A stretch of 64,000 nucleotides of DNA from a virus (Duplodnaviria > Caudoviricetes), in IMG/VR virus record IMGVR_UViG_3300035208_002115. One strand, 5' to 3'. Below, piece after piece: positions 21 to 63,460 of this stretch (within the stretch, counting starts at the first letter, position 1; every line of letters starts with the position of its first letter). Position numbers and translations under genes: made by a program. Under the pieces are notes generated by a model, which was not told the DNA's origin, did not search any database, and was given only the letters and a program-made list of their open reading frames with translations.

Positions 21-404
21 TTATCGTATGTCATCGAATAAAGATATTATTTTTGTTTTTCTTTTTTTAGAAATTATATAATTTTTCAACTCTATTGGTT
101 CTTTCATATCGGCCTTGGTAATAAATCCCAAAGTATTTCTACTGTATTTACCATATAATTGTTCTGTGAAATGATTCGAAACCATTATTTGGTATTGGGT
201 ATTATCTGCTAAATAATCATAGAACATTTGGTCAATTATTATTTCAGCATTTGTATTAAGATTTAATATAAACTCTATATAATCAACCCAATCCATAATT
301 ATATCCCCAGATTTAAAATGGTGTATTTTATTTCGATACTTTACAAATAAATAACAATATTCACCTTTTTTGAGATGAATATATAAAGTATTATTATTAT
401 GCAT
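21..404 (-). CDS. hypothetical protein with C-terminal RxxK[IL]xx[IL] motif
   Basis: 127-aa ORF ending KRKTKIISLFDDIR. Confidence 0.7.
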   Translation of the reverse strand: MHNNNTLYIHLKKGEYCYLFVKYRNKIHHFKSGDIIMDWVDYIEFILNLNTNAEIIIDQMFYDYLADNTQYQIMVSNHFTEQLYGKYSRNTLGFITKADMKEPIELKNYIISKKRKTKIISLFDDIR

Positions 405-412
405 ATAATTTT

Positions 413-709
413 TTAATCGACAGTTTCGATGGTAGCTTCTATTTTTCGTTCATTGAGACCACGTTTCATAGGTAACAATAAATCCAAATCCCCTACTTTA
501 GCCTCTGTTTTACCTTTGTGGTGTGCAAGCAAAGCAACTTGTTCAGCCTGTTCTGGTGTGTGGTCACATATGTCACATAATGATTTTACAATCCAGTCGA
601 AGCTATTAACATCGTCATTATGAAGAATCAACCTGTGTGATTTAACAGTCTCATTCTTAATCTCATTAAGAACTTGCTCAATTGTTTTTGTATTTTCGTT
701 TCGTATCAT
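413..709 (-). CDS. clpS: ATP-dependent Clp protease adaptor ClpS (Bacteroidota type)
   Basis: LILHNDDVNSFDWIV...HTPEQAEQVALLAHHKGK matches the ClpS N-degron-binding core. Confidence 0.9.
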   Translation of the reverse strand: MIRNENTKTIEQVLNEIKNETVKSHRLILHNDDVNSFDWIVKSLCDICDHTPEQAEQVALLAHHKGKTEAKVGDLDLLLPMKRGLNERKIEATIETVD

Positions 710-742
710 ATGTTTATATTTTTCGTTTTATAAATTCAACTA

Positions 743-750
743 CAAATATA
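743..750 (-). promoter_or_regulatory. Bacteroidota housekeeping-sigma -7 element (TAnnTTTG) upstream of clpS
   Basis: TATATTTG on the minus strand. The same motif occurs at 1421-1428, 11059-11066, 12272-12279, 13949-13956, 35401-35408, 46491-46498 and 58868-58875 (-), and 46908-46915 and 51372-51379 (+), each at the head of a gene run. Confidence 0.6.
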
Positions 751-808
751 TATTTTAAATAAATTAAAAAAAAATTACAAGGGTTAATATTTTATATTTA
801 AAAAGTCT

Positions 809-1132
809 TTACATCCCGACATTGATATCGTTCCAAATATCTTTAATTTTTTCTTTCCTGAGATAAGGAATAAATTCTTTTTTTGTGACTTTTTCTACAT
901 CACACTTATAATAAATAGTATTAGTGTTGGAATTAGATTCACCGAATATGACATTTTTATATAAATATATGTATTCTTGTCCTCTAACTGTATGATAAAA
1001 AGATTTATATGGGTTTGTTAATTGATAAAATTTGATAAGAGTATAATTATCGTCAAATTTAATTGTTATACCATTTGGACTTTGTGAAATATTATACGCT
1101 AAAGAAACTGTTAATGCCATTAAATCAATCAT
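809..1132 (-). CDS. hypothetical protein with C-terminal RxxK motif
   Basis: ORF; LRKEKIKDIWND. Confidence 0.7.
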   Translation of the reverse strand: MIDLMALTVSLAYNISQSPNGITIKFDDNYTLIKFYQLTNPYKSFYHTVRGQEYIYLYKNVIFGESNSNTNTIYYKCDVEKVTKKEFIPYLRKEKIKDIWNDINVGM

Positions 1133-1421
1133 CTAATATAGTTTTTATTTTAAATAATCTTTCAATTATATTTGATTCTGTTGCATAAACTCTAATATCA
1201 CTCATGTATATGGTATCTGGTGAAATATATTTTAATTTTGCTGATACTTCATAATAAGTTCTAATTTTAAAATTTAATGATGAATATTTAGTTGAATAAA
1301 AATATAATTTATTTTCCATATCAATAAAAGATGACATATCATCAGATTTTTCACCTGAAAATAAACACATCAAATATATTTTATTCCTTTTTTTCATAAA
1401 AAAAAAACACTCCCCATACAC
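1125..1421 (-). CDS. hypothetical protein with C-terminal RxxK motif
   Basis: ORF; ERLFKIKTILDD. True start is probably a downstream ATG. Confidence 0.65.
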   Translation of the reverse strand: MYGECFFFMKKRNKIYLMCLFSGEKSDDMSSFIDMENKLYFYSTKYSSLNFKIRTYYEVSAKLKYISPDTIYMSDIRVYATESNIIERLFKIKTILDD

Positions 1422-2426: not shown

Positions 2427-3662
2427 TTACTTAAATATTTTATTCAGCTTTACTTTTCTGAAATATTGTGAAGTTTGGGGAGATTTGAGCATGTATATAT
2501 AAGCATCTTCTCCGTCAACTTTACTAACAGTATATAGACTATTAAAATCTTTGACAATATAAACAATCATATTATGATATATAGCAGTTTTAATTGTATA
2601 AATTAATTCACTAACTGGTATGTTTATAGCTTGACATGATTTATAAATAGTTTTATCTATATTCAATGAAAATGATTTTGTATCGAAACAATCATTTATA
2701 TTCATAAAAAAGGAAACAGTATCGACAAAGAATATGAAAGGCTCATATGTTTCGCCAATATTATTTATTTTATTTATTTCGAACATCGTCAAATATAGTT
2801 TCTATTTTAATTTTTCGGATATATCTTTCTGTTGATTTATTTTTTAATGATGAAACACTAAATGAACACCTTCTCACATCATTACAATCTAAATTATCAT
2901 CTTGGTGTAAAACCACATTATATGAATCTTGTAAAAGATATACTATTTTATTTTCCTTTACTAAATTCTTAATCATATTATAAAAAACATATACATTTCT
3001 TACAGTATGACTAAATGTGAAATCTTTTCTATAATCGTGATTATCATAAAAATATAGTATATCAATATTATGGTCATTAGAAACGGATGTATCATAAATA
3101 ATATCTGATACATCATTCACATTTCTATAAAAACATTCATTTTCAACAATAAAAACGAATGGGTGGTATCTTTTATCAATATTATTGAAAAAATCATATG
3201 TAGTTATTAAACTCATCTTAAAATCTCTCTAAGTTTAGCTCTACGAATTAGATTTTTATCAGTTTCAAGTGATAAATATATAGTTGCCTTTTTTCTTTTA
3301 AAATCATAATCAATACAGATGTTATTATCCTTTTTTAAAATATAAACAAAATAACCCTTATTTATGAACTTACGTATAAAATATACTAAATTATGTATAT
3401 TGGTATAATAATCAAGCTCGTATTTTTCCCAAAATTCATTATATTTAAAATAAGACCCAGAAGTTAGATACGTTCGACCACTATACACCGACATACCAGT
3501 GGAACGATGTTTTAACATAACTATTTTATATCTTGATGTAATTGATTTGCGTGGTTGAAGTGTATCAATGGTGTAAGGAATATCAATAGATTTTGTTATT
3601 TTTACACAATTAGAATATTCTTTCCCGATTGTTTGTAAAAACTTATCAATTTTAATATTCAT
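2427..3662 (-). CDS. three overlapping, probably paralogous hypothetical proteins (2427-2792, 2770-3216, 3213-3662), all with the C-terminal RxxK motif
   Basis: Shared I(G/D/N)..Y.PF.F.V-like N-termini and K....VY(I/L)(V/L) segments; ends FRKVKLNKIFK, IRKIKIETIFDD, IRRAKLREILR. Confidence 0.7.
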
Positions 3663-7530: not shown

Positions 7531-7865
7531 TCTCTTAATAATTTATCAATTTGATATTTTTGTTCCAGCCTATCCACATATTTTTTAAGTATTAAACCAT
7601 GACAAAGTTTTGGGAGACACCAACAGCCACATGTCTTAAACATTAGTTCTGGGAGAGATTCCATTAATTCTTTACTGTTTAATAAATATTCTTCGAATTT
7701 TTCAACCGCTTCTTCTCTGGTGGCAACGATAAATTTAGCTAAACTTTTTGGGTCGTGAGAATATGGATTACCCCATTTAGATTCTTCACCAGTTTTTGGA
7801 CAGTTTCCACGACCAATATAAACATCATAATTTTTATTTTTCTTAATGTTTACGAGTTTACACAT
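7527..7865 (-). CDS. DUF4326 family protein
   Basis: YDVYIGRG...SKWGNPY...REEAVEKF...CGCWCLPKLCHG. Confidence 0.85.
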   Translation of the reverse strand: MCKLVNIKKNKNYDVYIGRGNCPKTGEESKWGNPYSHDPKSLAKFIVATREEAVEKFEEYLLNSKELMESLPELMFKTCGCWCLPKLCHGLILKKYVDRLEQKYQIDKLLRD

Positions 7866-8106
7866 TCAATATATCTTTTAATTTTAATATTCTAATGTAT
7901 TCATTGTTTTTAAATCTATTAGCTAAAAATAAATCGCCATCAATTAATACATAATCCATGTTATTATGAACAAAACTATCATTAACTCTATATTTTTTAT
8001 ATAAAATGAGAGATTTCGCTAAATAGTTTTCACACTCAGTACTCCATGATATAACTTGGTTATATACACAAAATATAAAAACGCCTGAATTAATTTTACT
8101 ATTCAA
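7858..8106 (-). CDS. hypothetical protein with C-terminal RxxK motif
   Basis: IRILKLKDILNV. Confidence 0.65.
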   Translation of the reverse strand: MNSKINSGVFIFCVYNQVISWSTECENYLAKSLILYKKYRVNDSFVHNNMDYVLIDGDLFLANRFKNNEYIRILKLKDILNV

Positions 8107-9234: not shown

Positions 9235-10722
9235 TTATTCCAAATTCTTAAATAATATGTCTACTTTCTTGGAAACCAGTTCTCTACCCTTCAAAAGTTG
9301 AGATTTTATCGTAGATAGATTTATACCTAAAGCATTAGAAATCTCTTGATATTGCATACAATCAATTTCTCGCATGATTAATACCTTTTTATATTTTTCA
9401 TGTTTTTTAGGTAATGTATAAATGACATTTCGAATTATTTCAGCTTTTTTATCGATTAAAACCTGTTGATTCAAATCATCCTCACCATAATCATATGGTA
9501 TCAAATTTAATAAATTAACTCCGTAGTCTTCGTCATCGTTTGAATTAGAAGAATTATTATCAATAGGCACAACATTTAATCGTTTTTCATCTTTAAATGA
9601 TTTTTTAACGATATTTTCAGCAATTCTATATAACCAAGTATTAAATTGGGACTTCTCTGGGTTGTAGGATTCTATTTTCTCCAAGGCTTGTATGAATGCT
9701 TCATTAGCAAATTCTTGGGCAGATTCAAGGCTTTTTGTATATTTGGCAAGATGCCAACTTAAATTATTAAAATGTTTATTATAATATTTTTTAAAGACGA
9801 TGCCAACTTTATTTTCAAATAACTTCTCACATTTATTCTGAATATTATTTTCTTCAAATAAAGTGAATAATATTTCTATAATTCTATCTGTTTCACGACA
9901 AACCGCACCAGCATCTTTATTCGAAAACATATCCATATATTGATGGAAAACATCCAAAGCATTAACATTAAAATCTAATCCAGACTCTAAAAACTTTTCT
10001 GGTGTTTTTAATGCTTCTATTAAAATTTCGTCTTTTAAATTTATATTTTTACGAATTCGCCTGTCCAACCCAAGTATTTTTTGTCTTTCACCAAGTTTTA
10101 TTTGTCCCTTAGAATCAAACGCTATTAATTTATTTGAAAGACTTCTATAAGATACTTTCTCATTCTTTAATCTTTCTAACGTGTTAGTTTGTCTCTCGAC
10201 AGCTTTTGTAAATAATTTTAATTTATCTGAAATCTGTTCTATTTTTTTAATATATGAAAATTTACTATGTTTAATTCGATGTGATGTGTGACTATTATTA
10301 TATGTTATAAAAGATTTACTATTATTTTCTCTATATAATAGACCCATATTTAATTGAGTTGATATTTTCCCATTGACCGAATCAGATAAAGAAATATATT
10401 CAACATAATCTTCACCATTAATATACAAACCTTTACACATGAAACTTAATTCATACTGACCATCTTCGTAAAATGTAAGTGAATATAACAGTGGATTAAT
10501 ATTATTTTCTTTTAATTTATTTAGAATTAAATCATTAAATACTGGGTGTTGGAAAAGAAGTTTTTTATGGGTTGATTCACATTTGGCTATTTCAGTATCA
10601 CCAAATTTTATATGTAATATTTTTTCCCCATTTTCAACTTCAATGTTTGTTTTTAAGCTATTCAAAATAAATTTTAATTCTCTGGTATTATATACTCCCG
10701 AACGCTCAAATGACTTTCTCAT
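9235..10722 (-). CDS. ECF-type RNA polymerase sigma factor with a large N-terminal DUF932-like extension
   Basis: C-terminal sigma region 2 (AQEFANEAFIQALEKIESYNPEKSQFNTWLYRIAEN) and region 4 (MQYQEISNALGINLSTIKSQLLKGR); N-terminal ~285 aa resembles 11375-12235. Confidence 0.8.
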   Translation of the reverse strand: MRKSFERSGVYNTRELKFILNSLKTNIEVENGEKILHIKFGDTEIAKCESTHKKLLFQHPVFNDLILNKLKENNINPLLYSLTFYEDGQYELSFMCKGLYINGEDYVEYISLSDSVNGKISTQLNMGLLYRENNSKSFITYNNSHTSHRIKHSKFSYIKKIEQISDKLKLFTKAVERQTNTLERLKNEKVSYRSLSNKLIAFDSKGQIKLGERQKILGLDRRIRKNINLKDEILIEALKTPEKFLESGLDFNVNALDVFHQYMDMFSNKDAGAVCRETDRIIEILFTLFEENNIQNKCEKLFENKVGIVFKKYYNKHFNNLSWHLAKYTKSLESAQEFANEAFIQALEKIESYNPEKSQFNTWLYRIAENIVKKSFKDEKRLNVVPIDNNSSNSNDDEDYGVNLLNLIPYDYGEDDLNQQVLIDKKAEIIRNVIYTLPKKHEKYKKVLIMREIDCMQYQEISNALGINLSTIKSQLLKGRELVSKKVDILFKNLE

Positions 10723-11121: not shown

Positions 11122-11397
11122 TTATCTTCTTTTTAATCTGTTATACCTTATTAAAATCGGTATAGTCTCTTTAGTACACATCAGTGCATACATAATAAAT
11201 AATAATCCAAAAAAGATAGCTGGCACATTTATAATCCAGTTCTCATATTCACCATTATCAATTGTTACTACCAGTATACAATACATAACACCAAACCCCA
11301 ACCAAAATAGAAAACATATTGATAAATACTTTAAAAAAACTAATATTTTAGATATTATACTCATAATCTTAAAATTATAATTTATCAATAGCTTCAA
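11122..11397 (-). CDS. small two-TM membrane protein
   Basis: Two hydrophobic helices and a basic C-terminus. Confidence 0.6.
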   Translation of the reverse strand: MKLLINYNFKIMSIISKILVFLKYLSICFLFWLGFGVMYCILVVTIDNGEYENWIINVPAIFFGLLFIMYALMCTKETIPILIRYNRLKRR

Positions 11398-12235
11398 TCA
11401 ATCTACGGCATTCTCTTTCGATGGTTGTGGAATCTCTATAAGAATATATCTCAGTAAAAAGGTTGACAATGTGTTTAGCATTCACTATAATATCGAAAGA
11501 GCTTTTAAACAACTCTTTAGGATGATTAAGCAGGTCGATTTCGTGAGTTGTAATATTCATGATTTCAGGTGTGCGAGATTTTAATAATCTTTTATTCAAC
11601 GCCCTGATGCGTAGCATATCAGATGGTTTAATAACTCCATCTTCATCTTCCCGTAGTAGCTCACGATACAAAGACTTCAAAGAAATTGAACTTTGTTCAA
11701 GTTTTTGCAGATGTGCAACCTGTTTCTCGATGATAATATTAAACTCAGGAAGAACATCGATAAACTGATTTAACCTATCTGGTAAAGATTTGTAAAAATG
11801 ACGACCAGATACCGAAGCGTTTTCATTTTCAACTGATATAATAACTGGAACATTATTGGCCTCACGTACAAGTCCGATGTTCATTTGCAATGCTCGTGAT
11901 TTGTCTGATGAATTAACAAGGTTGAACATTTTGTAATAAATATCACCACCAACTTTTACAATACCCCCAATAAGACGTATTTCCTGTGCGCCCCCATTTA
12001 TACGAAAACTATACTTTTCAGGTGAAAAATACCTATTGATGGTCTTAATGATGTTAGTTGCAAATGTTTTGAAATCAAATGACCAATATTTTTCAGATAC
12101 ATCGACAATAGCTAATACACGATGGTCATACGTTGTTTTAACTGTTAAATTTTTATGGAGAATGTCGAATTTGTCTATTTTACCCAATACATCTTCTTGT
12201 ATATACGGGTATTCAACTGTTTTCTTTGTCCTCAT
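11375..12235 (-). CDS. DUF932/DUF945-like protein
   Basis: VSEKYWSFDF and NLVNSSDKSRALQMNIGLVR resemble the NShDgs..f...Gl.R signature. Confidence 0.5.
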   Translation of the reverse strand: MRTKKTVEYPYIQEDVLGKIDKFDILHKNLTVKTTYDHRVLAIVDVSEKYWSFDFKTFATNIIKTINRYFSPEKYSFRINGGAQEIRLIGGIVKVGGDIYYKMFNLVNSSDKSRALQMNIGLVREANNVPVIISVENENASVSGRHFYKSLPDRLNQFIDVLPEFNIIIEKQVAHLQKLEQSSISLKSLYRELLREDEDGVIKPSDMLRIRALNKRLLKSRTPEIMNITTHEIDLLNHPKELFKSSFDIIVNAKHIVNLFTEIYSYRDSTTIERECRRLIEAIDKL

Positions 12236-12404: not shown

Positions 12405-13391
12405 TTATTCATCACAAATATCTTTTAATTTTTCTTTTCGTAAATTTAAAAATAAATTATGAATAACTTTTTTTTCCTGAGTAGTTAAATATTCATTTTG
12501 TCTATTTGGGGATTCGTAATTACCAGTAGAAGTAAAATATAAAAGATTATATATGGAACAAATTGCTCCTTTATAACCTTTTATTAAAAATTTATACTGC
12601 ATCAAACCACCCATCTTCACTCTCTGATATTCATATGGCATAGTTATTTTAATTTTCTTATTTCTTATTTTATTTGTTGTGGTATATTGTTTTAAAACTT
12701 TAATTATGTGGCTGACAAAATCCCCCATATCCATATGAAATGCACTATTACAACAATCTCGACAATATTCAGCAATGAATTTCTCGGTTTTATTATTAAA
12801 TTTACGATTTATTTTAGCCGTATAATAATGCATACCCTTAAAGTATTTATCATCTAAATTCATTCCCAAAAATTTCATTAAGTTTTTTAAATCGTTGAGT
12901 TGAAATGCTGTGAAGTGTTCGTTGTTTTATTAAATTGTAAAACTCATTAACTTTATCATCACCAACAATTTCTAATTCATAAATTGGTATCTCAGTATGA
13001 ACACTGATAATATAATATCTTTCAAATTTCTCTTGTAATGTCATCACTTAAAATGTCTTTAAGTTTTTCCTTTCGTTCTCTTATTTTTTTCTTTTTAGAA
13101 TATTCTTTAGAGATTTCAAGGAATCTATTAATATCATCTACTTCAGTATCAATATAGTTATTCAGATGTTTCGAATTCATCACCAAATATTTCTTTAAGT
13201 TTGTCTTTTCGATGTCCAACTTTTATTTTTCGTTTTGTTTCCTCACTAAATGGTTTCATGGACATTGGATATAACGATTCGAAATCCATTTTCATGATAA
13301 TCGATTTATATACTTTATCTGGCGGTGGTAAAAGTCTTATTTGACCACCTTTATAATTTTTTGGGTCGAAAAATGCTTTCTTCTTTTTCAT
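12405..13391 (-). CDS. four overlapping small proteins (12405-12878, 12850-13047, 13022-13219, 13158-13391), each with the C-terminal RxxK motif
   Basis: LRKEKLKDICDE, QRFKKLNEIFGN, ERKEKLKDILSD, HRKDKLKEIFGD. Confidence 0.7.
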
Positions 13392-14798: not shown

Positions 14799-16013
14799 TT
14801 GATGAGAAAACAATTAAAAGAATTTAGAATACTATGTTTTTTACCTGATACATTGAAATATTTAACTGCAACAGATACTATAAATTTTAACGGACAAGAT
14901 TTAAAAACCTCTTATATTGCACATATCATAAATGAAATGATAACTAAGTATACATTTAATGGTGAATATGTGTTTCCTATCTGGTCAAAAATAATGCAGA
15001 GTTTATATGGTAAATTTTATAAAAATTATATCAATTACATAGTTAATACTGGATTCATGCGTGAATTCGAAAAACATAAAATGGGCAATATATCAAAAAG
15101 ATATATGATGGATTTAAATTTTCTTGCAAACTCTAAAATAAAGAGATATCCATTTTATGATATGTTCCTAAGAAGAAAACTTGATGATAAGAATGCCCAT
15201 TACAATTTTACGGATTTAAACCAATCATTAATATTAGAATCCGTTAGAATTAAATTAGTTTCTGATTTATATCGTGTTGATATTGATTCTAAAAAAGCAT
15301 TGGACTATCTCATTGAACTTAAAACCAAAAATATAATAACTGATAATTCTTTTTTAAAAAATCACATATCCATTATGCAATTGATGGAGAGTGATATATT
15401 CTATAAATTTGATGGGTTCGGTAGATTCCATTCTAACTTCACCATCCTAAAAAAAGAACTTAGACATCAATTTATTACAATAGATGGTGAAAATATTTGT
15501 GAAATTGATATTAAAAATTCTCAACCATTATTCCTCGGTGTACTTATTAATGAAGAATATAATTACAATCCACCAAAAAAGTTACAAGATTATATCGATT
15601 TAGTAGAATGCGGTTTGTTGTATGAAGATTTTTTACAGAATTGTGGTGGAAGAATATCCACCAGAGATGAAGTCAAAGTATTTATATTTAAAGTATTATT
15701 TGGTAAAAACAATGAATATTTTAAAGAAAATAAGGTGTTCAAATCGATATACCCAGAGGTTTTCGAATTTGTAAAAAATTATAAAAAGAAAACAGGTTCA
15801 TATAAAAATCTTTCTCATGCTTTGCAGAAAAGAGAAAGTGAATTTATTTATAATAAAGTGGTTAATGAAATATTATTTCGATACCCAGAAATTCATCTTT
15901 TTACTGTACACGATTCCATATCATACCCTCTAATATATAAGGAACAGGTTGACGAAATATTTAATAAATATCGAAATCAACTCTTTATTCAGAAAATATC
16001 TGAGTCAATTTAA
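14799..16013 (+). CDS. minimal family-A-like nucleic acid polymerase domain protein
   Basis: GRFHSNF, motif A EIDIKNSQP, motif B RDEVKVFIFKVLFG, LQKRESE, motif C TVHDSI; no exonuclease domain visible. Confidence 0.6.
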   Translation: MMRKQLKEFRILCFLPDTLKYLTATDTINFNGQDLKTSYIAHIINEMITKYTFNGEYVFPIWSKIMQSLYGKFYKNYINYIVNTGFMREFEKHKMGNISKRYMMDLNFLANSKIKRYPFYDMFLRRKLDDKNAHYNFTDLNQSLILESVRIKLVSDLYRVDIDSKKALDYLIELKTKNIITDNSFLKNHISIMQLMESDIFYKFDGFGRFHSNFTILKKELRHQFITIDGENICEIDIKNSQPLFLGVLINEEYNYNPPKKLQDYIDLVECGLLYEDFLQNCGGRISTRDEVKVFIFKVLFGKNNEYFKENKVFKSIYPEVFEFVKNYKKKTGSYKNLSHALQKRESEFIYNKVVNEILFRYPEIHLFTVHDSISYPLIYKEQVDEIFNKYRNQLFIQKISESI

Positions 16014-26279: not shown

Positions 26280-26753
26280 TCAACAATTATATAATGATTC
26301 AATTTTTTCTTGTCTTTGTATTTTTAATAATATAGAATTAACATATTTTCTAAAATCACCAGTGATGTTACCATTATATCTATCTTTTTGTATAGAAACC
26401 GCATAAATGTCGAATATGTTCCCAGATTCGAAATGAAGATGTAAAGTCAAGTCACTTCTTACTTCATATTTCCTACTAACAGAAAAATCTACAAATTTAC
26501 CATTACCTCTTAAAAATATTGGACATATATACATAAAACTTTCTGGTGTCCAAGAATCAGAATATAATTCATTATTTGTGACTATTTTAGTATCAATTTC
26601 TATTAAACCGAAAATATGTTTCTTTTTCTTAACATTATTTGTAAAATCAGACATTAAATGATTAAAAAATCTTTCTGAATATGGGTGTTCAATATTAATA
26701 TTAATAGCTTTTATTAAAATTCTACTATAATCATTAAAAGGATAATTAATCAT
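26280..26753 (-). CDS. hypothetical protein with C-terminal RxxK motif
   Basis: QRQEKIESLYNC. Confidence 0.65.
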   Translation of the reverse strand: MINYPFNDYSRILIKAININIEHPYSERFFNHLMSDFTNNVKKKKHIFGLIEIDTKIVTNNELYSDSWTPESFMYICPIFLRGNGKFVDFSVSRKYEVRSDLTLHLHFESGNIFDIYAVSIQKDRYNGNITGDFRKYVNSILLKIQRQEKIESLYNC

Positions 26754-34803: not shown

Positions 34804-34806
34804 ATT

Positions 34807-35010: not shown

Positions 35011-35016
35011 TTTCTG

Positions 35017-46939: not shown

Positions 46940-49447
46940 TTGTGTGTTATGAAAAGCCAAGAGAATTATTTAACAGATAAAAAAACAAAAAATTCTGTTA
47001 ATAAAAGAAACCGTGTAATTGGCAAAAAGGTTTCATTAAAAAAATCATCAAAAAGGGTTATTAGAAAATCCAATATAATTGGTGAGTCAATATCCAATGA
47101 AGAAACTACTAAAGTCACTTTGCGTAAAAATAAAAAAGGTAACGTGAAGAAAATTTTAGATGGAAAAAAAATAACTGGAAAATTACATAAAAGTGATATT
47201 TCAGTCATTAATGTAGAAAAATCTGAAAGTAAACGTGGTAGGGGTAGACCAACAGGTAGTTTAAATAAAAAAACATTACTCAAATTATCTTCTACACCCC
47301 AAATTTCAAAAATAAAACGGGAACGGGGTAGACCCAAAGGAAGTCTTAATAAGAAAACTTTAGAAAATCTGGAAAAGAATATTCCAGAAATTAAGGTGAT
47401 GCGAGATAGGGGAAGACCTAAAGGTAGTCTTAACAAAAAAACTATCGAAAAATTGAAATCAGAACCTGTCGTGATGAAGGTGAAACGAGACAAAGGAAGA
47501 CCTAAAGGGTCATTGAATAAAAAAACAATTCTTAAAATGCAAAACCCTGAAACAATAAATAAGGAAAAACGTGAAAGGGGTAGACCAAAGGGAAGTTTAA
47601 ATAAAAAAACTTTATTGTCTAAAAAATCAGAAACAATTAAAATGGGTTACATGCGCCCACCAGAAAGTATTATTAAAAAGCATGTTTTATTACCTGTTAT
47701 TGAAGAAAAAACTCGTACTTTACTTTCTGAATCAATTCACATCCCAAAGAAATCATTATCTGTTGATTTAATAGATAAACTTAATGAATTGGAAGATTAT
47801 TCTAAGGCTCATTTCATTCAATCTGTTTCTTTTTCGCAAAAACAAGTCATGTCATTATTTAATGATTCAATCACCTTTGATTATTATCAGAGAGAATATG
47901 TCTGGGGAAAAGATGAGATTGATGTTTATATTGATTCATTGATAAAGAATTATAGATATAAACGAATTACAAATATTGGTTCTATCGTAATTGATAAGAA
48001 AAATGATAAGCTGTCTATTATTGATGGGCAACAAAGATTGACGACTCAGCTCTTAATTTATGTTATTCAATTTAATTATTTGAATAAGATAAAGAACACT
48101 ATTAATAGTGAAGAATTCAAAACTTTTTCTATTATATATGGTATCTTGAATAAAATATTAACGAACCTTAATTTCGTTAAAAATCAAGACCAAAAGGTTT
48201 ACACCGATGTGTTTAAATACATCAATGAAAACTACGAACAAATAGTTCTTCTAAATGATTACGGTAAATTCAGTGACTACTATTATAAAGATTTTTCAGT
48301 TTATAATATTTTAAATAAACTGAATTTTATTTGTAATGAATATGGGAACAAAATATTGGACTTGAAATTCATTTTTTATAGTTTAATGAATATATCATGT
48401 GAAGCTGGTGTATTAGACGAAAGCATCAATGCTAATGATGTTTTTATTACATTGAATACCTCAACTAAAAAATTGAACAATTATGAGTTGACCAAATCAA
48501 TATTACTTAATCATTTTAATGATGAACCAGAGTTACAAAAAGAAATAAGCCATAAATTTTATCAGGCTTCTTCGTATTTGAACATTCTCGGAAAGACCTC
48601 ATCCATTCAGGATTCATCAGAATTGACATTTCAATATTTTTTACGGATGCGCTATAAAATAAAAGGTAGTAACTACCGTGAACATTTGGAAAACTTAATT
48701 GATGATGGCGGTAAAAAATTTATCATAAAACTTATTGATGAGTATTTTATTGTTTCTACCTACATCAAATCTATTTTTGAAGATTCTAAGAATAGGTCTA
48801 TTAAAATAACCTTAGAAATTATCAAACGTGTTTTTGGTGGTAGTTCGAATATCCACATGAATCTTCCTATTGCTGTTTCACTTTATTTCTATGACCATGA
48901 TATAGAAATGAAGGACATTACAAATATTCAAAGAAAAGAATTGAAAGAATTATATCTTTATTTCCTTGAATACACAGTAATTATGGGTTTATGTGCCGTT
49001 GGTATCAGAGACCACCACAAGGATAAAAACAATGAAGTTGTAGCATATTCTCAAAATATTCTCAAAAAAGGAATTATGGGGGGTGTAAACTACTTCAAGA
49101 AAAAAATACAAGAGAACACACAGGATGTCATTGATGATTATGTAGATAACAAAAAATCATCCATATATTTGAAGTCAAAAAACGTCAAATTTAAACTCGG
49201 TGAAAAAACACTTGACCCGAAATTATATGACATTTTAACTTCATTTCAAAATATCGACAATAAAATCACATTGGATGTAATGGTATCTAACATATTGAAA
49301 ATGATGGTTGATAAGTCATCTGAAAAAGAAATTTCTAAACATAATGTAAAACAAAGTTTGGAACTTTCGAAGATTAATGAAAATTTTTCTACATTTGTTA
49401 GGGAGTTTAATAATATAAAAGACTTCAATGGAAAAATCATCATTTAA
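46940..49447 (+). CDS. multi-AT-hook protein fused to a DUF262 (GmrSD/ParB-like) domain
   Basis: Five R(E/D/G)(R/K)GRP(K/T)GSLNKKT repeats; YQREYVW, IIDGQQRLTT, VFITLNT...L..YELTKS. Confidence 0.82.
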   Translation: MCVMKSQENYLTDKKTKNSVNKRNRVIGKKVSLKKSSKRVIRKSNIIGESISNEETTKVTLRKNKKGNVKKILDGKKITGKLHKSDISVINVEKSESKRGRGRPTGSLNKKTLLKLSSTPQISKIKRERGRPKGSLNKKTLENLEKNIPEIKVMRDRGRPKGSLNKKTIEKLKSEPVVMKVKRDKGRPKGSLNKKTILKMQNPETINKEKRERGRPKGSLNKKTLLSKKSETIKMGYMRPPESIIKKHVLLPVIEEKTRTLLSESIHIPKKSLSVDLIDKLNELEDYSKAHFIQSVSFSQKQVMSLFNDSITFDYYQREYVWGKDEIDVYIDSLIKNYRYKRITNIGSIVIDKKNDKLSIIDGQQRLTTQLLIYVIQFNYLNKIKNTINSEEFKTFSIIYGILNKILTNLNFVKNQDQKVYTDVFKYINENYEQIVLLNDYGKFSDYYYKDFSVYNILNKLNFICNEYGNKILDLKFIFYSLMNISCEAGVLDESINANDVFITLNTSTKKLNNYELTKSILLNHFNDEPELQKEISHKFYQASSYLNILGKTSSIQDSSELTFQYFLRMRYKIKGSNYREHLENLIDDGGKKFIIKLIDEYFIVSTYIKSIFEDSKNRSIKITLEIIKRVFGGSSNIHMNLPIAVSLYFYDHDIEMKDITNIQRKELKELYLYFLEYTVIMGLCAVGIRDHHKDKNNEVVAYSQNILKKGIMGGVNYFKKKIQENTQDVIDDYVDNKKSSIYLKSKNVKFKLGEKTLDPKLYDILTSFQNIDNKITLDVMVSNILKMMVDKSSEKEISKHNVKQSLELSKINENFSTFVREFNNIKDFNGKIII

Positions 49448-54295: not shown

Positions 54296-54484
54296 TTACT
54301 CACAACTTTTTCCAAATATTTCTTCTATTTTCTTTTTTCGCTCAAATGAAATGTTTTTCTTCTCAAATTTCTTTTCGAGTTTTTCTAAATATTTATAAGC
54401 TTCGACTTGGGTTCTAAAATAATTATCACCAAAAACCCACAAACCACAATCCGAATTATATTCAACATAACTATAATCAAACAT
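54296..54484 (-). CDS. small protein with C-terminal RxxK motif
   Basis: ERKKKIEEIFGK. Confidence 0.65.
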   Translation of the reverse strand: MFDYSYVEYNSDCGLWVFGDNYFRTQVEAYKYLEKLEKKFEKKNISFERKKKIEEIFGKSCE

Positions 54485-54832: not shown

Positions 54833-55327
54833 TTATTCAAATAAATTTTCTATTTTAATAATATTCTGTGGACTTCTTCTCTCATCAAATATTTCAGATA
54901 TCTTATCCATTCTAACTTTTTTGATGTCTTTATCATTGAAATATTCAAACCCAGAACATGTGTAAATAACTTTAGTATATCTTATATCACTGCTTTTACT
55001 ATAATCCAAATCGAAAAATCCAGAATATCCAGTGAAACAAAATTCATGAACTATAAAATAGTACATTATACTCCCGTCTTTTTGATGAAAATTAATTTTA
55101 ACACCAATAGGTTTATCAATATATTTATTAAGTATTTCAAATGGATAATAAATATTATTTTTAGTGTCATAATTTTCATTAAACATATAATTATGAGACA
55201 TTTTAGTTAGTGAGCTTGACAATTTATCACCGTCATCTATACTAAATATAACATCAAAAATATTAGCATATATAGGGTCACCATATCCAAAGCTTGCACC
55301 AACACTACTAAAATGAGGTAATGGCAT
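54833..55327 (-). CDS. diverged tail-tube paralog with RxxK motif
   Basis: MPLPHFSS...DPIYANIFDVIF vs tube MPLPHFTN...EPIHKSLYEVDI; INFHQKDG vs IYLHDKEG; VRMDKISEIF. Confidence 0.65.
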   Translation of the reverse strand: MPLPHFSSVGASFGYGDPIYANIFDVIFSIDDGDKLSSSLTKMSHNYMFNENYDTKNNIYYPFEILNKYIDKPIGVKINFHQKDGSIMYYFIVHEFCFTGYSGFFDLDYSKSSDIRYTKVIYTCSGFEYFNDKDIKKVRMDKISEIFDERRSPQNIIKIENLFE

Positions 55328-55330: not shown

Positions 55331-55942
55331 TTAATCCACTTTTTTTAATTCAAATTTTTCATCGAAAATTTGAATAACTTCTTTTCCAACAAAATGATTA
55401 ACATCCTTAGAATCCGTTATGTCATCAATTTTATCCATTCTGGCTCTGTTAATATCACAATTTTCAAATACAAAACCTGAGAATGTATAAAATACTTTTA
55501 TATCTTCTCTATTATCATCATTTATATAATTAAATAGATTACTTTTTATATTTTTTAATTCTTCTTCATCTTCGATTTTTATATCTCTATCATCACATTC
55601 ATCAAGTATAGTATCATTGAAGAACCCAAATAAATTAAGATAAGATGTAAATTTGAAATTTTTTAGATGAATTTTAAACATTGGTTCTTCTTCACCATCG
55701 TTAAAATATTCAAAATATACATCAATATCTTTATTAAGAACATTATTAATAAGTTCAAATGGTATAATTATTTTTTTCTCATTACAATAACCAAATTTGA
55801 ACTTAAACCATTTTGAAGTATGTCCAATACAAGCCAATGATAATAAATCACCATCATCTATATCAAATCTAACATTATATTTATCTATTTCTCCGATGTC
55901 ATATTTTTCATCATTGACATTATAATCTGGTAAAAACTCCAT
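55331..55942 (-). CDS. paralog of the adjacent tube-like protein with RxxK motif
   Basis: Shared IDDGD.LS, PFE..N, F.FT.Y, KV.YT.SGF and RMDKI motifs. Confidence 0.65.
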   Translation of the reverse strand: MEFLPDYNVNDEKYDIGEIDKYNVRFDIDDGDLLSLACIGHTSKWFKFKFGYCNEKKIIIPFELINNVLNKDIDVYFEYFNDGEEEPMFKIHLKNFKFTSYLNLFGFFNDTILDECDDRDIKIEDEEELKNIKSNLFNYINDDNREDIKVFYTFSGFVFENCDINRARMDKIDDITDSKDVNHFVGKEVIQIFDEKFELKKVD

Positions 55943-56552: not shown

Positions 56553-56720
56553 TTAATCATTACAAGAACAAAATTTTTTAAACCCAATTGGTTCATATGG
56601 ACTACTTCTTCTATCAATTTCCAAACCACACCTCGGACAAGGTTGATTTAAACCCATACCGAGTTGACTCAAATCATATGGATTATGATATGTTTTACCT
56701 GTTAGTTTATTCCGTTTCAT
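56553..56720 (-). CDS. small zinc-finger-like protein (not in ORF track)
   Basis: Manual translation ...QPCPRCGLEIDRRSSPYEPIGFKKFCSCND*. Confidence 0.5.
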   Translation of the reverse strand: MKRNKLTGKTYHNPYDLSQLGMGLNQPCPRCGLEIDRRSSPYEPIGFKKFCSCND

Positions 56721-57100
56721 AATATATCGTTAAATATTTCTTTTATTTTTTCTTTTCTTATATCAGATACAGTAACCATATAGTCTGTTATTACGGTCTC
56801 ATTTTGTTTTTCAATATATCTTCTTAATTGATATAAACAATTCCGAACAACTGTATCAAAACATGAACCACCCATTAAACAAACGGTTTCATCTGAAACT
56901 TCTTTTTTCAGAATCTCAATTCCATCTTGTTCAAATAATAAAACTTTATCAGATTCCACATTATACAAAACATATTTATGTTTATTAGATTGAATTATAT
57001 GGAGAATGTTTAATTTCTTTTCTGAAGAAGTATTAATCCTGTAAGGAAGTTTATACAATTTTTTTAATAAATTAATCATTTTCTGGTTTAACATTACCAT
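56717..57100 (-). CDS. hypothetical protein with C-terminal RxxK motif
   Basis: IRKEKIKEIFND. Confidence 0.65.
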   Translation of the reverse strand: MVMLNQKMINLLKKLYKLPYRINTSSEKKLNILHIIQSNKHKYVLYNVESDKVLLFEQDGIEILKKEVSDETVCLMGGSCFDTVVRNCLYQLRRYIEKQNETVITDYMVTVSDIRKEKIKEIFNDIL

Positions 57101-58500: not shown

Positions 58501-58856
58501 TTAATCCTTTAATATTTCTTCAATTTTTAATTTTCGTAATTTATTTCTATTCACCGTTTCATAAACACCATTTCTACGTATAATAATTTCATTGTTTGAT
58601 ACGTGAATATCAGCGTTCCAATCGTACTCATCTGGTGAATAATATTTCTTTTTTTTACTCATTCTACTTTAAACAATGGGTCATAATCATCACAAAAATT
58701 ATCCAGACAATATAAACCACGACCATCATCTCCATAATCAACTAAAATATTATGCACATCTGAACACTCAGTAATCACACCTGTGATTCCATCACCATCT
58801 ATAACTTTCATCCCATTATAGATATCTTCTATTGATAATTCTTTTTTATTATTCAT
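58501..58856 (-). CDS. two small proteins (58501-58662 with RxxK motif, not in track; 58659-58856)
   Basis: Manual translation MSKKKKYYSPDEYDW...NKLRKLKIEEILKD*. Confidence 0.6.
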
Positions 58857-58897: not shown

Positions 58898-60196
58898 TTA
58901 AAACATCACATTTTTATGAATGTCTGATTTAGCATCCAAATTAAATATTTCATGTATAGCAATATCCGCATTATTATTCTTTAAACAAATATTTTGAATT
59001 TTACTCATAGAATATTCATTATTATATTTAACATCTTTCAAGAAACCATTTAATTTCACTTCGTAAAACAGTTCAATATATTCTTGAATTAAATATTTAT
59101 CTGGATTATCAATTTCAATTTTAACATCCATCCGTCCGTCTCTTAATAAAGCTGAATCCAATTTGCTAAAGAAATTAGTGGTTACTATAACAATTAAACC
59201 GTCTTGTGAAAGAACGCCATCTAAACATTGAAGAAAATTAGAAAATGTCAAATTTTTTAAAATGGAATCTCTACCATCAAATATAGCATCAATATCTTCA
59301 ATAAGTAATACTGCATCATTATCCATTTTATTCAAAGCATATCGTAAGTCACCGTCTTTTAAATCATTCATAGCTAACATATATAATTTTTTATTATATT
59401 TTCGAGCTATTGCCAATGCAGTAGAGGTTTTCCCATTGCCGGGTGTCCCATGTAATAAGTATCCTCTTTTATAGGGTATACACCTTCTTGAATACCATTC
59501 TCTGTTATTTGAGAACCGTTCTAAATCATTTATGATTAAATCTTTTTTATCTTTATTAAGAATAATATGATTTATATCTTTTGGCTTAATGGTTTTACTA
59601 TCCCGTGTATACCAATCACCATAATTATTGTTAACGTATACATTGATTATACCAGAATCTATTGCTGGTTTAAATTGTTGATTATACTCAACAATTTCAT
59701 TTAATAACATTGTTAATTTATTTTTATAAAAAAATATTTTTAATTTATAAGAACCAAAAAATAAAGAAAATAAATCCTTGGCGTGTTCAATTTTATCTCT
59801 ATTTTTAGATATTGTTATTAAAGATTTTTTATATCGTATAAAAATAACATCAGCATATTGTCTATAATATATTTTATCTTCTTTTATTTTTTCACTATTA
59901 TAATATGGGGTCTCATTTTGGGGATTTTGACCTGTTAATAATTGTCTTTCTGATAACGATGCAACCACATTTCTATATTGTTTTGGATAATTAAAATTCA
60001 ACCACCTTTCAAAATAAGTATATAATTCATCAGTTTCTTCAATTGAAATTTCAAATACAACCTTTCGAGTAATTCTTTTCCAAAGAAACAAACCGAAATT
60101 TTTGAATATTAAAAATACCCCAGCCAACGAGGATAATATTAAACCAGCACTTAGAAATTGATTCTGTAATAATTGTAAAAGGCTCGCTTTATCCAT
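58898..60196 (-). CDS. BCS1-like membrane-anchored AAA+ ATPase
   Basis: N-terminal TM; IPYKRGYLLHGTPGNGKTS, LLIEDIDA, LTFSNFLQCLDG, TTN..KLDSALLRDGRMD. Confidence 0.9.
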   Translation of the reverse strand: MDKASLLQLLQNQFLSAGLILSSLAGVFLIFKNFGLFLWKRITRKVVFEISIEETDELYTYFERWLNFNYPKQYRNVVASLSERQLLTGQNPQNETPYYNSEKIKEDKIYYRQYADVIFIRYKKSLITISKNRDKIEHAKDLFSLFFGSYKLKIFFYKNKLTMLLNEIVEYNQQFKPAIDSGIINVYVNNNYGDWYTRDSKTIKPKDINHIILNKDKKDLIINDLERFSNNREWYSRRCIPYKRGYLLHGTPGNGKTSTALAIARKYNKKLYMLAMNDLKDGDLRYALNKMDNDAVLLIEDIDAIFDGRDSILKNLTFSNFLQCLDGVLSQDGLIVIVTTNFFSKLDSALLRDGRMDVKIEIDNPDKYLIQEYIELFYEVKLNGFLKDVKYNNEYSMSKIQNICLKNNNADIAIHEIFNLDAKSDIHKNVMF

Positions 60197-60208
60197 GTTT
60201 TCTTATTT

Positions 60209-62191
60209 TTATATTATATTCTTAAAATAATTTATTGTTTTAATTAATCCTTCTTCTAATGTTATTTTCGGTGTCCAGTTATCTAACTCTCTGTAAGCGA
60301 GTGATATATCAGGTTTTCTTTTTATTGGGTCATCTGATGGTAAAGGTAAATTAATTATTTTAGAATCGGAATTGGTTAATTGAATTATTTTTTCTGCTAA
60401 TTTTTTTATATTTATTTCATTCGGATTTCCTATATTGACTGGCCCGATGAAGCTTTCAGGTGTATTCATCATACGTATCATACCTTCAATTAAATCATCA
60501 ATATATTGAAAACTTCGTGTTTGAGAACCATTTCCATAAATGGTTATATTTTCATTTTTTAATGCCTGAATAATAAAATTAGATACTACTCGACCATCAT
60601 TTTTTTGCATGTTGATGCCATACGTATTAAATATTCTTATTATTTTAATTTTAGTATTATATTGACGATGATAATCCACGAAAAGTGTTTCAGCACAACG
60701 TTTTCCTTCATCGTAACAATTACCACAAAATACTGCTTTACCGTTTCTCCTAACATAAATTATATGGTTTTTAACATTTACACAGTATACATATCCTTCA
60801 TACTTTTTAATTGTAGGTTTTGAATATTGGTGTGATTTTTCATTATTTATACAGGTCATACTTTTAGTTTTTCTACCAGTTGGGGTATTCTGTATATTAC
60901 CATAACGACCTATTTTTAATAATAATTCTTGAACACCATCTAATAATTTATCTGAAATAGAATAATAAATATGAGATGATTGAGTTGTAGTAATTTTAGA
61001 AGCATCACCATCCATCATCGCTTCATATAAAATATTTAATTGTCTCTTAGACAAATTTAAAAACTCTCTTGGTATAAATTTATCCTTTGATTTACCGAAT
61101 GTTGATAAATATGTAAACAATTGTTTATTTTGAAAAACAAAATAACTATTTCCAGATTTCGATATAGAATATTTTATATTTAATCGTGCTAAACAATTTT
61201 TAATTTTTTCAAAAACGATTGGATTCTTTAACTTTGATTGCGAAATTTGGATTCTATATTTTTTAGTATGATAAGTTTTATTATTAACTATTTTAATAGC
61301 CTTTTGAAGATAAGTACAACCCTCAGTTAAAAAATATCCCATAAATTCTAACCAATCATCCATTCTAACTTTATCCATAATTGGTATTTTACAATATTTT
61401 AAATTCTTAGTGTATTCTGGAAAATAAAAATATTCTTGTCCAATACCATCCCATTCACATGTTTTTAATAAATTCACATGTCTAAAATCATGTAAATATT
61501 CGGCCTTTTGAAACACAAATTCTTCATTTTGTCTATATTTAACATACATATTATGATTTGGTGTAACAGATAAATCAATATTCCAATTTTTAAATGTATA
61601 AATATCACCTTCATATTGTTCTTTAATAATTTCATATGGTTGGTAGTACTCTAATTTTTTTGTAATAGGATTTAAAGTTGCAATTTCATCCGTAGAATTT
61701 AAATGAGTAAAATATTTCCATCCAGTATTAGTTAATATTTCAGTATCATCTGTATAGCAACTTCTAACACCGACTGGATTCACATTTCCCCAATAACTTT
61801 CAACTTGTGGGTGTATAAGAGGGTCACCATACACTTCACTTGTAGAAGCTTGTAATATGGTGGCATTAACTTCTTTCGCCAAATTAAGCATATTAATAGC
61901 ACCTAAAATTGAAGTATTTATAGTCTTAACTGGGTTGTATTGATAATGAACAGGTGATGCTGGACAGGCTAAGTTGTATATTTGGTCTACTTCAGCATGA
62001 TATGGAATTGTAATATCATGTCTAACTAATTCAAACCTTGGATTATTTAATAAATTAAAAATATTTTTTTTATTACCAGTAAAAAAATTATCTAAACATA
62101 TAACTTCATGACCTTGGTCAATTAATTTACTACACAAATTAGAGCCAATAAACCCAGCTCCACCAGTAACTAAAATTTTTCTTAAAATCAT
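60209..62191 (-). CDS. uxs: UDP-glucuronate decarboxylase (UDP-xylose synthase) containing an intein
   Basis: VTGGAGFIGS, NLACPASPVHYQ, ASTSEVYGDP, GVRS|CYDEGKRCAE, RIFNTYG, DGRVVSNFI; 313 aa after removing the intein. Confidence 0.92.
   Translation of the reverse strand: MILRKILVTGGAGFIGSNLCSKLIDQGHEVICLDNFFTGNKKNIFNLLNNPRFELVRHDITIPYHAEVDQIYNLACPASPVHYQYNPVKTINTSILGAINMLNLAKEVNATILQASTSEVYGDPLIHPQVESYWGNVNPVGVRSCYTDDTEILTNTGWKYFTHLNSTDEIATLNPITKKLEYYQPYEIIKEQYEGDIYTFKNWNIDLSVTPNHNMYVKYRQNEEFVFQKAEYLHDFRHVNLLKTCEWDGIGQEYFYFPEYTKNLKYCKIPIMDKVRMDDWLEFMGYFLTEGCTYLQKAIKIVNNKTYHTKKYRIQISQSKLKNPIVFEKIKNCLARLNIKYSISKSGNSYFVFQNKQLFTYLSTFGKSKDKFIPREFLNLSKRQLNILYEAMMDGDASKITTTQSSHIYYSISDKLLDGVQELLLKIGRYGNIQNTPTGRKTKSMTCINNEKSHQYSKPTIKKYEGYVYCVNVKNHIIYVRRNGKAVFCGNCYDEGKRCAETLFVDYHRQYNTKIKIIRIFNTYGINMQKNDGRVVSNFIIQALKNENITIYGNGSQTRSFQYIDDLIEGMIRMMNTPESFIGPVNIGNPNEINIKKLAEKIIQLTNSDSKIINLPLPSDDPIKRKPDISLAYRELDNWTPKITLEEGLIKTINYFKNII
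60719..61759 (-). mobile_element. intein with LAGLIDADG homing endonuclease (347 aa)
   Basis: Starts CYTDDTEILT, block B VTPNHNM, FMGYFLTEG and LYEAMMDGDA LAGLIDADG-like motifs, ends VYCVNV..H..YVRRNGKAVFCGN, +1 Cys. Confidence 0.92.
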
Positions 62192-62274
62192 TCATAAAAA
62201 CGTCTTTTTTGAACCGACACATATTAATATATAATTGTTTATATTTAAATGTCGATTTTCGCAATATTATATTA

Positions 62275-62730
62275 CTATACTAATTTCAATTCTTCAATCT
62301 TTTTCTTTCTTATATATCTTTTGTATTCATAATCATTCATAGTAACCCATTTACCATCAATTTCAAGGCAGAATGTAAAATCTTTTGTTGTAATATAAAC
62401 ACCAGATTTTTTATATTTAATCTTTTTCATCGAAAACATTCAGTTCTTTTAGTTTTTGTTTCCTACTGTATTTTTTATATTCATGTTCATACATCCATAC
62501 ATATTTGTCACCTACTCGAACACAAAAAATGTTATATCTTTTTCTTTCCTCAATCAATCTGAATATATCATCTAATAATTCTTTTTTAATCATACTAATT
62601 CGAGTTGTTCTATTTTAAGTTTTCTTATATATTGATTAAATTCAGTATAATTCATCACCACTGGTTTTCCTTTGATATCAACTATAATTCTATGTGAATA
62701 ATATATATCACGAACTTCAACATTTGGCAT
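62275..62730 (-). CDS. three tandem paralogous mini-proteins (62275-62430, 62417-62593, 62590-62730) with C-terminal RxxK motif, not in ORF track
   Basis: Manual translations end IDGKWVTMNDYEYKRYIRKKKIEELKLV, VGDKYVWMYEHEYKKYSRKQKLKELNVF and IKGKPVVMNYTEFNQYIRKLKIEQLELV. Confidence 0.7.
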
Positions 62731-62746
62731 AGTTATTTTATTGTTT

Positions 62747-63460
62747 TCATTCATATATAGTCTCTATTTTTTTCATTCGTTCCTTATCTATCGAATATAA
62801 TCCATATTTTTTTTCCATTCTTTCTAACACTTGTTGAAAAGTTTCACCCTTTTCATATTTTACTGAAATATCAGTTATACCACCTTTATAAGAACCTCTA
62901 CCTTTTCCAATATCAGTGGAAAAACTAACTGATAAATCTTTATGTATTATAGGGAAAAATTTTAACCATTTAATTATTTTATATCTCCATTCTCTTTCTT
63001 CAACAGTTATAACAGCATCTACATCTATACTATTTCCGTTTTCTATTTTATATTTATATTTTATAACCAATTTCCATAAACTATTCATGTCATAATCATC
63101 TCTGTTAGTTTTATTATTATTAAACCACGTATTGTCTATTAATAAATAACTGGTTCTAACCCATGTTTTATCCCAAAACATGTGTACAACTCTATTTTTT
63201 TCCCCAATACAAAACCACACCCCATTATCATGATAATATATACCATATTTTGGTGATTTATGACTATATATTTTGGAATTAAACGGAAGATGAATAAACA
63301 ATTGACCAATTAGTGTGATTTGAATACATGGTCTTGCATCAAAATATCCAGCCTTTTCATATATTAAAGCAAATCCACAAATAAATGGATAATAAGTTAA
63401 CCATTTGGTTTTATATTCTTTTGGTTCACCGTATTTATCTATTCTGAAATTTTTACCCAT
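62747..63460 (-). CDS. hypothetical protein with C-terminal RxxK motif
   Basis: VEEREWR, DIGKGRGSYKGG; ERMKKIETIYE. Confidence 0.7.
   Translation of the reverse strand: MGKNFRIDKYGEPKEYKTKWLTYYPFICGFALIYEKAGYFDARPCIQITLIGQLFIHLPFNSKIYSHKSPKYGIYYHDNGVWFCIGEKNRVVHMFWDKTWVRTSYLLIDNTWFNNNKTNRDDYDMNSLWKLVIKYKYKIENGNSIDVDAVITVEEREWRYKIIKWLKFFPIIHKDLSVSFSTDIGKGRGSYKGGITDISVKYEKGETFQQVLERMEKKYGLYSIDKERMKKIETIYE

Follow-up and report, generated by a model that had tools for sequence, protein, structure and literature searches.

The 64,000-nucleotide stretch of DNA analysed here, hereafter the window, raises the question of why some 25 otherwise unrelated proteins should end in variants of one short peptide, R-x-x-K-[IL]-x-x-[IL], here called the RK tag, and what this peptide could dock on. 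The window covers positions 573,370-637,369 of G000, a 675,678-bp genome of an uncultured phage (IMG/VR record), which is 98% complete by CheckV, ~93% coding (translation table 11), 27% G+C and rich in Lys, Ile and Glu. The RK tag proved to be a real, strongly selected modular docking motif carried by early accessory proteins, with a mechanism that we infer. It is probably a C-terminal linear docking motif that plugs more than 160 unrelated proteins into one common reader co-evolving with it.

Strict matches to the motif were sought by regular expression in the set of open reading frames (ORFs), and copies within 30 residues of the stop codon were counted as C-terminal. The non-overlapping ORF set of the window contains 24 ORFs with a strict tag; a second RKEKLKDI lies in ORF 13022-13219, beyond that set, which brings the total to 25, plus one variant with Phe at position 8 (Table 1). 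The initial annotation, which listed about 25 tagged proteins close to their stops, was accurate on both points: all 24 distinct strings are present, the second RKEKLKDI is real, and 22 of the 25 tags lie at most 10 residues from the stop, the remaining three at most 28. No copy farther than 28 residues from the stop was found in any ORF of the window gene set.

Across G000, 166 of 1,137 ORFs (~15% of the proteins) carry a C-terminal tag, in 153 of them no more than 10 residues from the stop, and a further 22 copies are internal. From 100 whole-protein shuffles, 4.2 +/- 2.0 copies at C-termini and 17 at internal positions were expected; with the shuffle confined to the last 38 residues, the expectation was 6.3 C-terminal copies. 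The reversed motif occurs at just three C-termini. The enrichment at C-termini that the initial annotation had proposed to look for is therefore present, with 166 copies against 4-6 in shuffles, and internal positions, at 22 against 17, are not enriched. The placement on minus-strand genes that it also described holds within the window but not genome-wide, where carriers are scattered along the whole genome (86 on the plus and 80 on the minus strand).

The stop typically falls 1-7 residues past position 8, with a range of 0-28. The extended logo reads [K/I/L]-x-x-[I/E/L]-R-K-[L/E/K]-K-[I/L]-[K/E]-E-[I/L]-[F/L]-[D/E/N]-[D/E], so that the G000 tag is zwitterionic, with a basic N-terminal half, an acidic C-terminal half and a hydrophobic stripe in the centre. 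The acidic positions are conserved in just 27-50% of copies, and the flanks hold no conserved site of the [LI]-x-E type used by prohead proteases; within the tag itself, [IL]5-x-E7 would fit such a site in 43% of copies. Substitutions at the two basic positions are few, with Lys at Arg1 in 15 tails and Arg at Lys4 in two, against 157 canonical tags; so strict a pattern fits a specific pocket better than generic charge or membrane affinity.

Such a pattern could in principle arise with no protein tag at all, from a DNA or RNA signal for the gene downstream, a Lys/Ile-rich artefact, a single family of extremely diverged paralogues or a signal in the nascent chain at termination, and the base and amino acid composition given above, together with the close packing of tagged genes against the gene that follows (median gap -1 nt), would fit this explanation. 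It is contradicted by the shuffled and reversed counts, by the variable spacing to the stop, and by the carriers themselves, which are 45-527 amino acids (aa) long (median 115) and include a beta-rich Acb3 fold (see below). All six Arg codons are used at Arg1 of the 166 tags (AGA 78, CGA 35, AGG 27, CGT 12, CGG 8 and CGC 6), near genome usage; Ile and Leu codons alternate at positions 5 and 8; and the two identical RKEKLKDI peptides of the window differ at four synonymous sites. Because of these three features, selection on the tag acts at the level of the protein and not of the DNA, as the initial annotation had it. The explanation without a protein tag is largely refuted and retains hardly any probability.

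Relatives were collected through a search with the tail sheath, which gave 76 related loci on which sheath trees were built; whole contigs and two complete published genomes (LR756501.1 and LR756502.1) were compared. Megablast of the window gave no match in the phage collection. In G001, a complete 640-kb sister genome whose sheath is 93% identical to that of G000, 112 of 985 ORFs are tagged. Median identity between the two genomes is 59% for tagged and 77% for untagged proteins, and the tag is kept in the G001 orthologs of 99 of 109 tagged G000 proteins, the apparent losses being mostly Ile-to-Met changes. The tag is thus retained while the protein bodies diverge.

The bodies that carry the tag are diverse. 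Stripped of the tag, the 166 G000 proteins fall into 159 BLAST clusters, and the cargo set of LR756502.1 is nearly all different from that of G000, in agreement with the interchangeable, unrelated cargo first proposed. Transmembrane-like segments are rarer in tagged (3.6%) than in untagged bodies (11.4%), and the median isoelectric points (pI) are 6.8 and 6.5, respectively; with so few such segments and a normal pI, the tagged bodies look soluble. Twenty of the window carriers were scanned against Pfam and 10 against PHROGs, and nearly all were without a family, only one passing a curated Pfam cut-off; six of the others, compared with PHROGs, had no family match there. Residues 10-43 of the tagged 77-aa ORF 13158-13391 have a weak match to DNA_pol_B (E 5.4e-5, just under the cut-off), and this ORF could derive from a core protein, of which it would be a tagged piece. 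The more general idea that tagged proteins are pieces of larger phage proteins was dropped, as BLAST supports it for a few genes elsewhere in G000 and for none in the window.

The carrier that passed the cut-off is ORF 62747-63460, which matches Acb3 (Pfam PF25187) with 90.1 bits against a cut-off of 27, over profile positions 20-241 of 245. The family is one of inhibitors of the cyclic oligonucleotide-based antiphage signalling system (CBASS), and Acb3 is reported to inhibit CD-NTases (10.1101/2025.07.23.666291). With this homologue, the tag is not missing from every recognisable family, which corrects the initial annotation. An exhaustive HMMER search with this protein returned 517 family matches, and nearly all of the best 150 of the 517 align as far as query residue ~218 and end there; an extra tagged tail was found in four of 151 retrieved Acb3-family proteins, all four from this phage group. 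In the carrier the family domain stops near residue 218-221, ahead of the tag (Table 1). Since nearly all the other members listed end before the tag, it is taken to be an appended add-on module.

The AlphaFold2 model of the Acb3 carrier (mean predicted local distance difference test score 91.5) has a beta-rich fold, and its tail is predicted to be a helix at residues 224-236; a Foldseek search of the model against the PDB gave nothing significant. The amphipathic docking helix put forward initially is supported in part, by this predicted helix and by the near-invariance of Arg1 and Lys4, its docking being the part that we propose.

Two promoter classes suggest when the tagged proteins are made. 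The motif TTAATATATA lies 25-30 nt upstream of the ATG in 108 G000 genes; within the window it occurs before 6697, 20550, 21358, 22726, 24801, 31052(-), 38146(-) and others, and precedes the tail-tube-like gene and its neighbours. This motif is probably a late-type promoter of the phage itself. It stands directly upstream of 16.6% of untagged genes but of only 2.3% of tagged ones (Fisher p = 1.6e-8). The Bacteroidota-type -7 element TAnnTTTG is over-represented in the region 20-50 nt ahead of start codons, and when operons were walked upward a TAnnTTTG site was reached first for 57% of tagged versus 33% of untagged genes, so the host-type promoters described ahead of tagged genes are statistically borne out. 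The depletion of the first motif and the excess of the second suggest that tagged genes are mostly early, as judged from promoter consensus.

This timing bears on the idea that the tag is a capsid-targeting signal, by which its carriers would be packaged in the giant head and leave it together with the DNA. A precedent is T4 IPI*, a packaged anti-defence protein; the Acb3 homologue would gain from being present at time zero, and HK97-fold shells have known C-terminal cargo peptides. The capsid-targeting sequence (CTS) of T4 IPI-III and Alt is likewise a portable short peptide on unrelated, fast-evolving accessory proteins that include an anti-defence one; however, it is N-terminal, cleaved by the prohead protease and limited to a handful of late, basic proteins, whereas the RK tag is C-terminal on ~166 mostly early-type proteins of ordinary pI with no adjacent protease motif. 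The same depletion of late-type promoters, the lack of any excess of basic bodies, the absence of a conserved protease site adjoining the tag and the number of cargos, 166, which far exceeds any known case, make packaging very unlikely. Encapsulin cargo-loading peptides and the C-terminal coat-binding helix of the P22 scaffolding protein resemble the tag in that interchangeable cargo is docked on one partner via basic residues, but the RK consensus is not of the GSLxIGSLK type, its carriers are spread genome-wide without adjacency to shell genes, and their promoter class argues against co-expression with structural genes.

Beyond the G000 clade, RK tags were found in a 19-member clade, in the outgroup contig G013 and in LR756502.1. 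The 19-member clade uses I-R-K-x-K-L-x-K-I-N (34 of 464 ORFs) and G013 carries 15 tags in 141 ORFs, while the 106 tagged ORFs of LR756502.1 (out of 987) follow R-[D/N/E]-x-K-[L/I]-x-x-[I/L]-[L/G]-[I]-stop, with no acidic tail. Position 2 is Lys or Arg in 67% of G000 tags and Asp, Glu or Asn in 84% of the LR756502.1 tags, over ~100 genes; in a third clade position 5 is Leu in 97% and position 9 is Asn in 44%. A G000 homologue is present for three of 114 tagged and 158 of 873 untagged LR756502.1 proteins, and in the two tagged ortholog pairs between these genomes the cargo is the same and the dialect converted. Each genome thus imposes its own spelling on its own cargo, as would be expected if a single reader co-evolved with the tags.

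A concerted change of dialect would also follow naturally if the tags paired with one another as antiparallel helices, the basic half of one lying on the acidic half of the next, so that tagged proteins would co-assemble without a separate reader; the zwitterionic G000 tag with its central hydrophobic stripe suits such an arrangement. The weak conservation of the acidic positions beside a near-invariant Arg1 and Lys4, and the LR756502.1 dialect with no acidic tail, make tag pairing highly improbable.

One clade, formed by G002 (243 kb, CheckV 100%), G003 and LR756501.1 (735 kb), is without the RK tag; G003 appears to be a near-identical fragment of LR756501.1. The motif occurs at one C-terminus of LR756501.1 against 15 internal positions, and this genome is therefore taken to lack the tag. 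At the C-terminus of proteins in this clade, DPYGEExW followed by acidic residues was found instead, on ~13 proteins in G002, 20 in G003 and 40 in LR756501.1, where about half of the copies are internal; one 673-aa ORF of G002 holds six copies, ~100-117 residues apart. The change from RK to DPYGEExW is a single event in the sheath tree, and DPYGEExW appears to be a replacement address. The two peptides share a phage family, a mostly C-terminal position and a similar class of small unrelated proteins, but differ entirely in sequence, DPYGEExW being acidic and aromatic and the RK tag a basic helix. No tag swap was seen on orthologous cargo between RK and DPYGEExW genomes, where only three RK-tagged proteins have homologues and none of these is DPYGEExW-tagged.

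What, then, would read the tag? A single reader with a pocket for Arg1 and Lys4 and a hydrophobic groove is what these data suggest, and a helical tag would place Arg1, Lys4, [IL]5 and [IL]8 on one face. The cargo would be soluble, mostly small, fast-evolving and mostly early-type proteins, including the Acb3-type CBASS inhibitor. As a best, speculative guess, docking could hand them to a proteolytic or remodelling machine that would remove or process early effectors at a set time, or receive whatever these effectors had bound. Poxvirus ankyrin/PRANC (F-box-like) host-range proteins and SspB XB and other adaptor tethering peptides follow the logic that we favour, in which a variable target-binding body is joined to an unchanging C-terminal handle and degradation machinery is recruited through the latter; PRANC, however, is a folded domain (~40-50 residues) whose partner is eukaryotic Skp1, and the RK tag does not follow the XB consensus, LRVVK.

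Several candidate readers were set aside. The AAA ATPase named as a possible partner in the initial annotation, a BCS1-like protein (Pfam BCS1_N + AAA, window 58898-60196 (-)), is a 70-residue remnant with stops in G001, which retains 112 tags; its decay there indicates an accessory gene that is being lost. A second, 394-aa AAA protein (G000 164,883-166,067) is also present in a DPYGEExW genome, and neither it nor the MoxR-like protein discussed below has sequence relatives in the PDB. A DUF932 protein (11375-12235 (-)) is restricted to RK genomes, but it is an ordinary protein, syntenic with the sheath and fast-evolving, and its absence from DPYGEExW genomes may be a failure of detection. A phyletic profile of three complete RK against two complete DPYGEExW genomes left 32 RK-only candidates, none of them compelling.

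Another candidate reader is encoded outside the window, in an operon at G000 184,817-189,010 with a DUF2201_N + DUF2201 protein, a second DUF2201 protein and a MoxR-like AAA; in this explanation the MoxR-like AAA+ and the DUF2201 metallopeptidase-vWA protein would read the tag as a degron or processing handle. The operon is the sole gene set present in all five whole RK-tag contigs profiled by tblastn and in the complete G001; it was found in the tagged G000, G001, G004, G006, G007, G008, G009, G013 and LR756502.1, is absent from the complete 243-kb G002 and did not turn up in G003 and G010, which are partial contigs. The MoxR and the vWA-peptidase genes are both preceded by TAnnTTTG-like sites, and MoxR identity to G000 is 82% in G001, 48-55% in other RK clades and 36% in the DPYGEExW genome, while the sheath is ~48% identical to all but that of G001. 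A single-protein scan for MoxR loci found the sister genome G001 alone. The operon is, however, also present in LR756501.1, with no RK tag and 40 C-terminal DPYGEExW tags, and the phyletic correlation has n = 1, since the switch of tag type is a single event in the sheath tree. The vWA-metallopeptidase of G000 shares 44-50% identity with genes of LR756501-04 and LR745206, which we take to be huge-phage genomes of Al-Shayeb et al. 2020, the 735-kb one included. The MoxR/vWA pair is moreover widespread in group 2.2 jumbo phages without the tag, where it is thought to serve virion assembly (PMC7824862). The operon thus accompanies the RK tag wherever the tag was found but is not specific to it, and its role as the reader is unlikely.

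A host hub, such as a protease-unfoldase, clamp, RNA polymerase, ribosome or chaperone, could be the reader instead, with dialects that track different Bacteroidota hosts. Tagged genes are of the early type, the class that handles host machinery, dialects vary among phages from different samples, and no phage gene is cleanly confined to RK genomes, those that come nearest belonging to ordinary families such as DUF932. To our knowledge, however, the tag resembles none of the bacterial docking consensuses (QL[SD]LF, ssrA LAA, MuA RRKKAI and SspB LRVVK), and a host reader is given a similarly low probability. Clamp-binding tails (T4 gp43, gp33 and gp55) and the PIP-box are alike in that unrelated proteins share a terminal hydrophobic peptide for one hub, but these consensuses (Q-x-x-[LIM]-x-x-[FY]-[FY] and QL[SD]LF) are without an invariant Arg or Lys, the RK tag is without the Gln position, and a clamp has just a few partners, in replication and transcription, as against 15% of a proteome here.

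A broader proposal joins the two tags, in that phages of the Mahaphage type would use exchangeable tag-reader pairs for addressing on the scale of the proteome, the RK tag with the MoxR/vWA-metallopeptidase and DPYGEExW with an M14-like carboxypeptidase, so that early anti-defence and host-takeover effectors are removed on schedule or the host proteins that they have captured destroyed. The RK tag and its dialects would serve most clades, and DPYGEExW that of the 735-kb phage. The M14/AstE-like carboxypeptidase (G002 227777-228631) is missing from RK genomes and 78-79% identical among DPYGEExW genomes, where it ranks 14th by identity of 152 shared proteins (median 63%). We consider this pairing decidedly unlikely in that form.

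Several points weigh against docking on one common reader, the explanation that we hold to be probable. A conserved internal copy, LRSKKLQELFGFE, lies at residue 169 of a 412-aa protein (G000 565419-566657 (-), 8 kb before the window) and is retained in G001 as RIRKIQELFEF, so that a terminal position is not absolutely required. The predicted tail helix may pack on its own Acb3 domain or stand free, the dialect shifts may also stem from tag-tag pairing or from host-specific readers, and the promoter classes are consensus matches, not transcripts. The 412-aa protein has no family, and the idea that its internal tag marks a Rosetta-stone fusion was abandoned, as it has no paralogue and is a single ORF in G001 too.

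The tagged ORFs of the window are given in Table 1.

Table 1. RK tags in the window, with the ORFs that carry them (window coordinates).
Tag	Position	Strand	ORF	Length (aa)	Remarks
RKTKIISL	39-62	-	21-404	127	
RKEKIKDI	836-859	-	809-1132	107	
RLFKIKTI	1137-1160	-	1125-1421	98	
RKVKLNKI	2436-2459	-	2427-2792	121	
RKIKIETI	2794-2817	-	2770-3216	148	
RRAKLREI	3222-3245	-	3213-3662	149	
RILKLKDI	7870-7893	-	7858-8106	82	
RKEKLKDI	12417-12440	-	12405-12878	157	First in a run of four consecutive tagged small ORFs
RFKKLNEI	12871-12894	-	12850-13047	65	
RKEKLKDI	13052-13075	-	13022-13219	65	Second copy
RKDKLKEI	13188-13211	-	13158-13391	77	
RKFKLTQI	15997-16020	-	15985-16674	229	
RQEKIESL	26292-26315	-	26280-26753	157	
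RVEKLKNL	27215-27238	-	27194-27508	104	
RKYKIKEF	27522-27545	-	27489-27878	129	Variant, Phe at position 8
RSEKLKEI	30356-30379	-	30335-30829	164	
RAYKIYTI	40257-40280	-	40224-40859	211	phrog_22676 (function unknown)
RKKKIEEI	54317-54340	-	54296-54484	62	
RMDKISEI	54890-54913	-	54833-55327	164	Stop 18 residues on
RMDKIDDI	55418-55441	-	55331-55942	203	Stop 28 residues on
RKEKIKEI	56735-56758	-	56717-57100	127	
RKLKIEEI	58513-58536	-	58501-58662	53	
RKKKIEEL	62287-62310	-	62275-62439	54	
RKQKLKEL	62441-62464	-	62417-62593	58	
RKLKIEQL	62602-62625	-	62590-62754	54	
RMKKIETI	62756-62779	-	62747-63460	237	Acb3 family; tag at residues 228-235

Other genes of the window include those for a 1,192-aa tail sheath, a tail-tube-like protein and an M23 peptidase. 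A 495-aa sigma-70-family protein with a 300-residue N-terminal extension is encoded at 9235-10722 (-), and 11 tRNA genes are clustered at 32516-35089 (-), for Gly, Arg, Thr, Pro and Gln (two each) and Ala. A PorP/SprF type IX secretion outer-membrane protein (31052-32026 (-), E 6.7e-58) and a protein with NMT1-like and OmpA domains (43176-44738 (-)) were found, which together with the TAnnTTTG promoters suggest a Bacteroidota host and remodelling of its envelope. An 835-aa phage protein at 46940-49447 (+) carries GmrSD_N (DUF262), a restriction-type nuclease module. At 60209-62191 (-) a 660-aa NAD-dependent epimerase/dehydratase has its Pfam match split around a LAGLIDADG_3 stretch (residues ~394-448), which looks like an intein or homing-endonuclease insertion. 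A second shared motif, M-K-[HY]-[LI]-K-[LT]-F-E-[ED]-F, is located at the N-terminus of at least 19 G000 proteins, including that at 36810-37340 (-), and none of them has the C-terminal RK tag.

No paper mentioning the RK tag was found in the searchable literature. One portable peptide marks ~15% of the proteins in some of the largest known phages, the published LR756502.1 included and, with another tag, the 735-kb LR756501.1, and sorts hundreds of ORFans into a single class that is early, soluble, of fast turnover and includes at least one immune inhibitor. The tag therefore provides a handle for finding anti-defence genes and their hub, and the tag-reader pair could act as an orthogonal tool. 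Should the reader prove to be a remodelling or proteolysis machine encoded by the phage, it would represent a new layer of post-translational control in infection, and Mahaphage addressing with peptidase machines, if true, would be the bacterial-virus counterpart of the viral F-box and SOCS-box adaptors.

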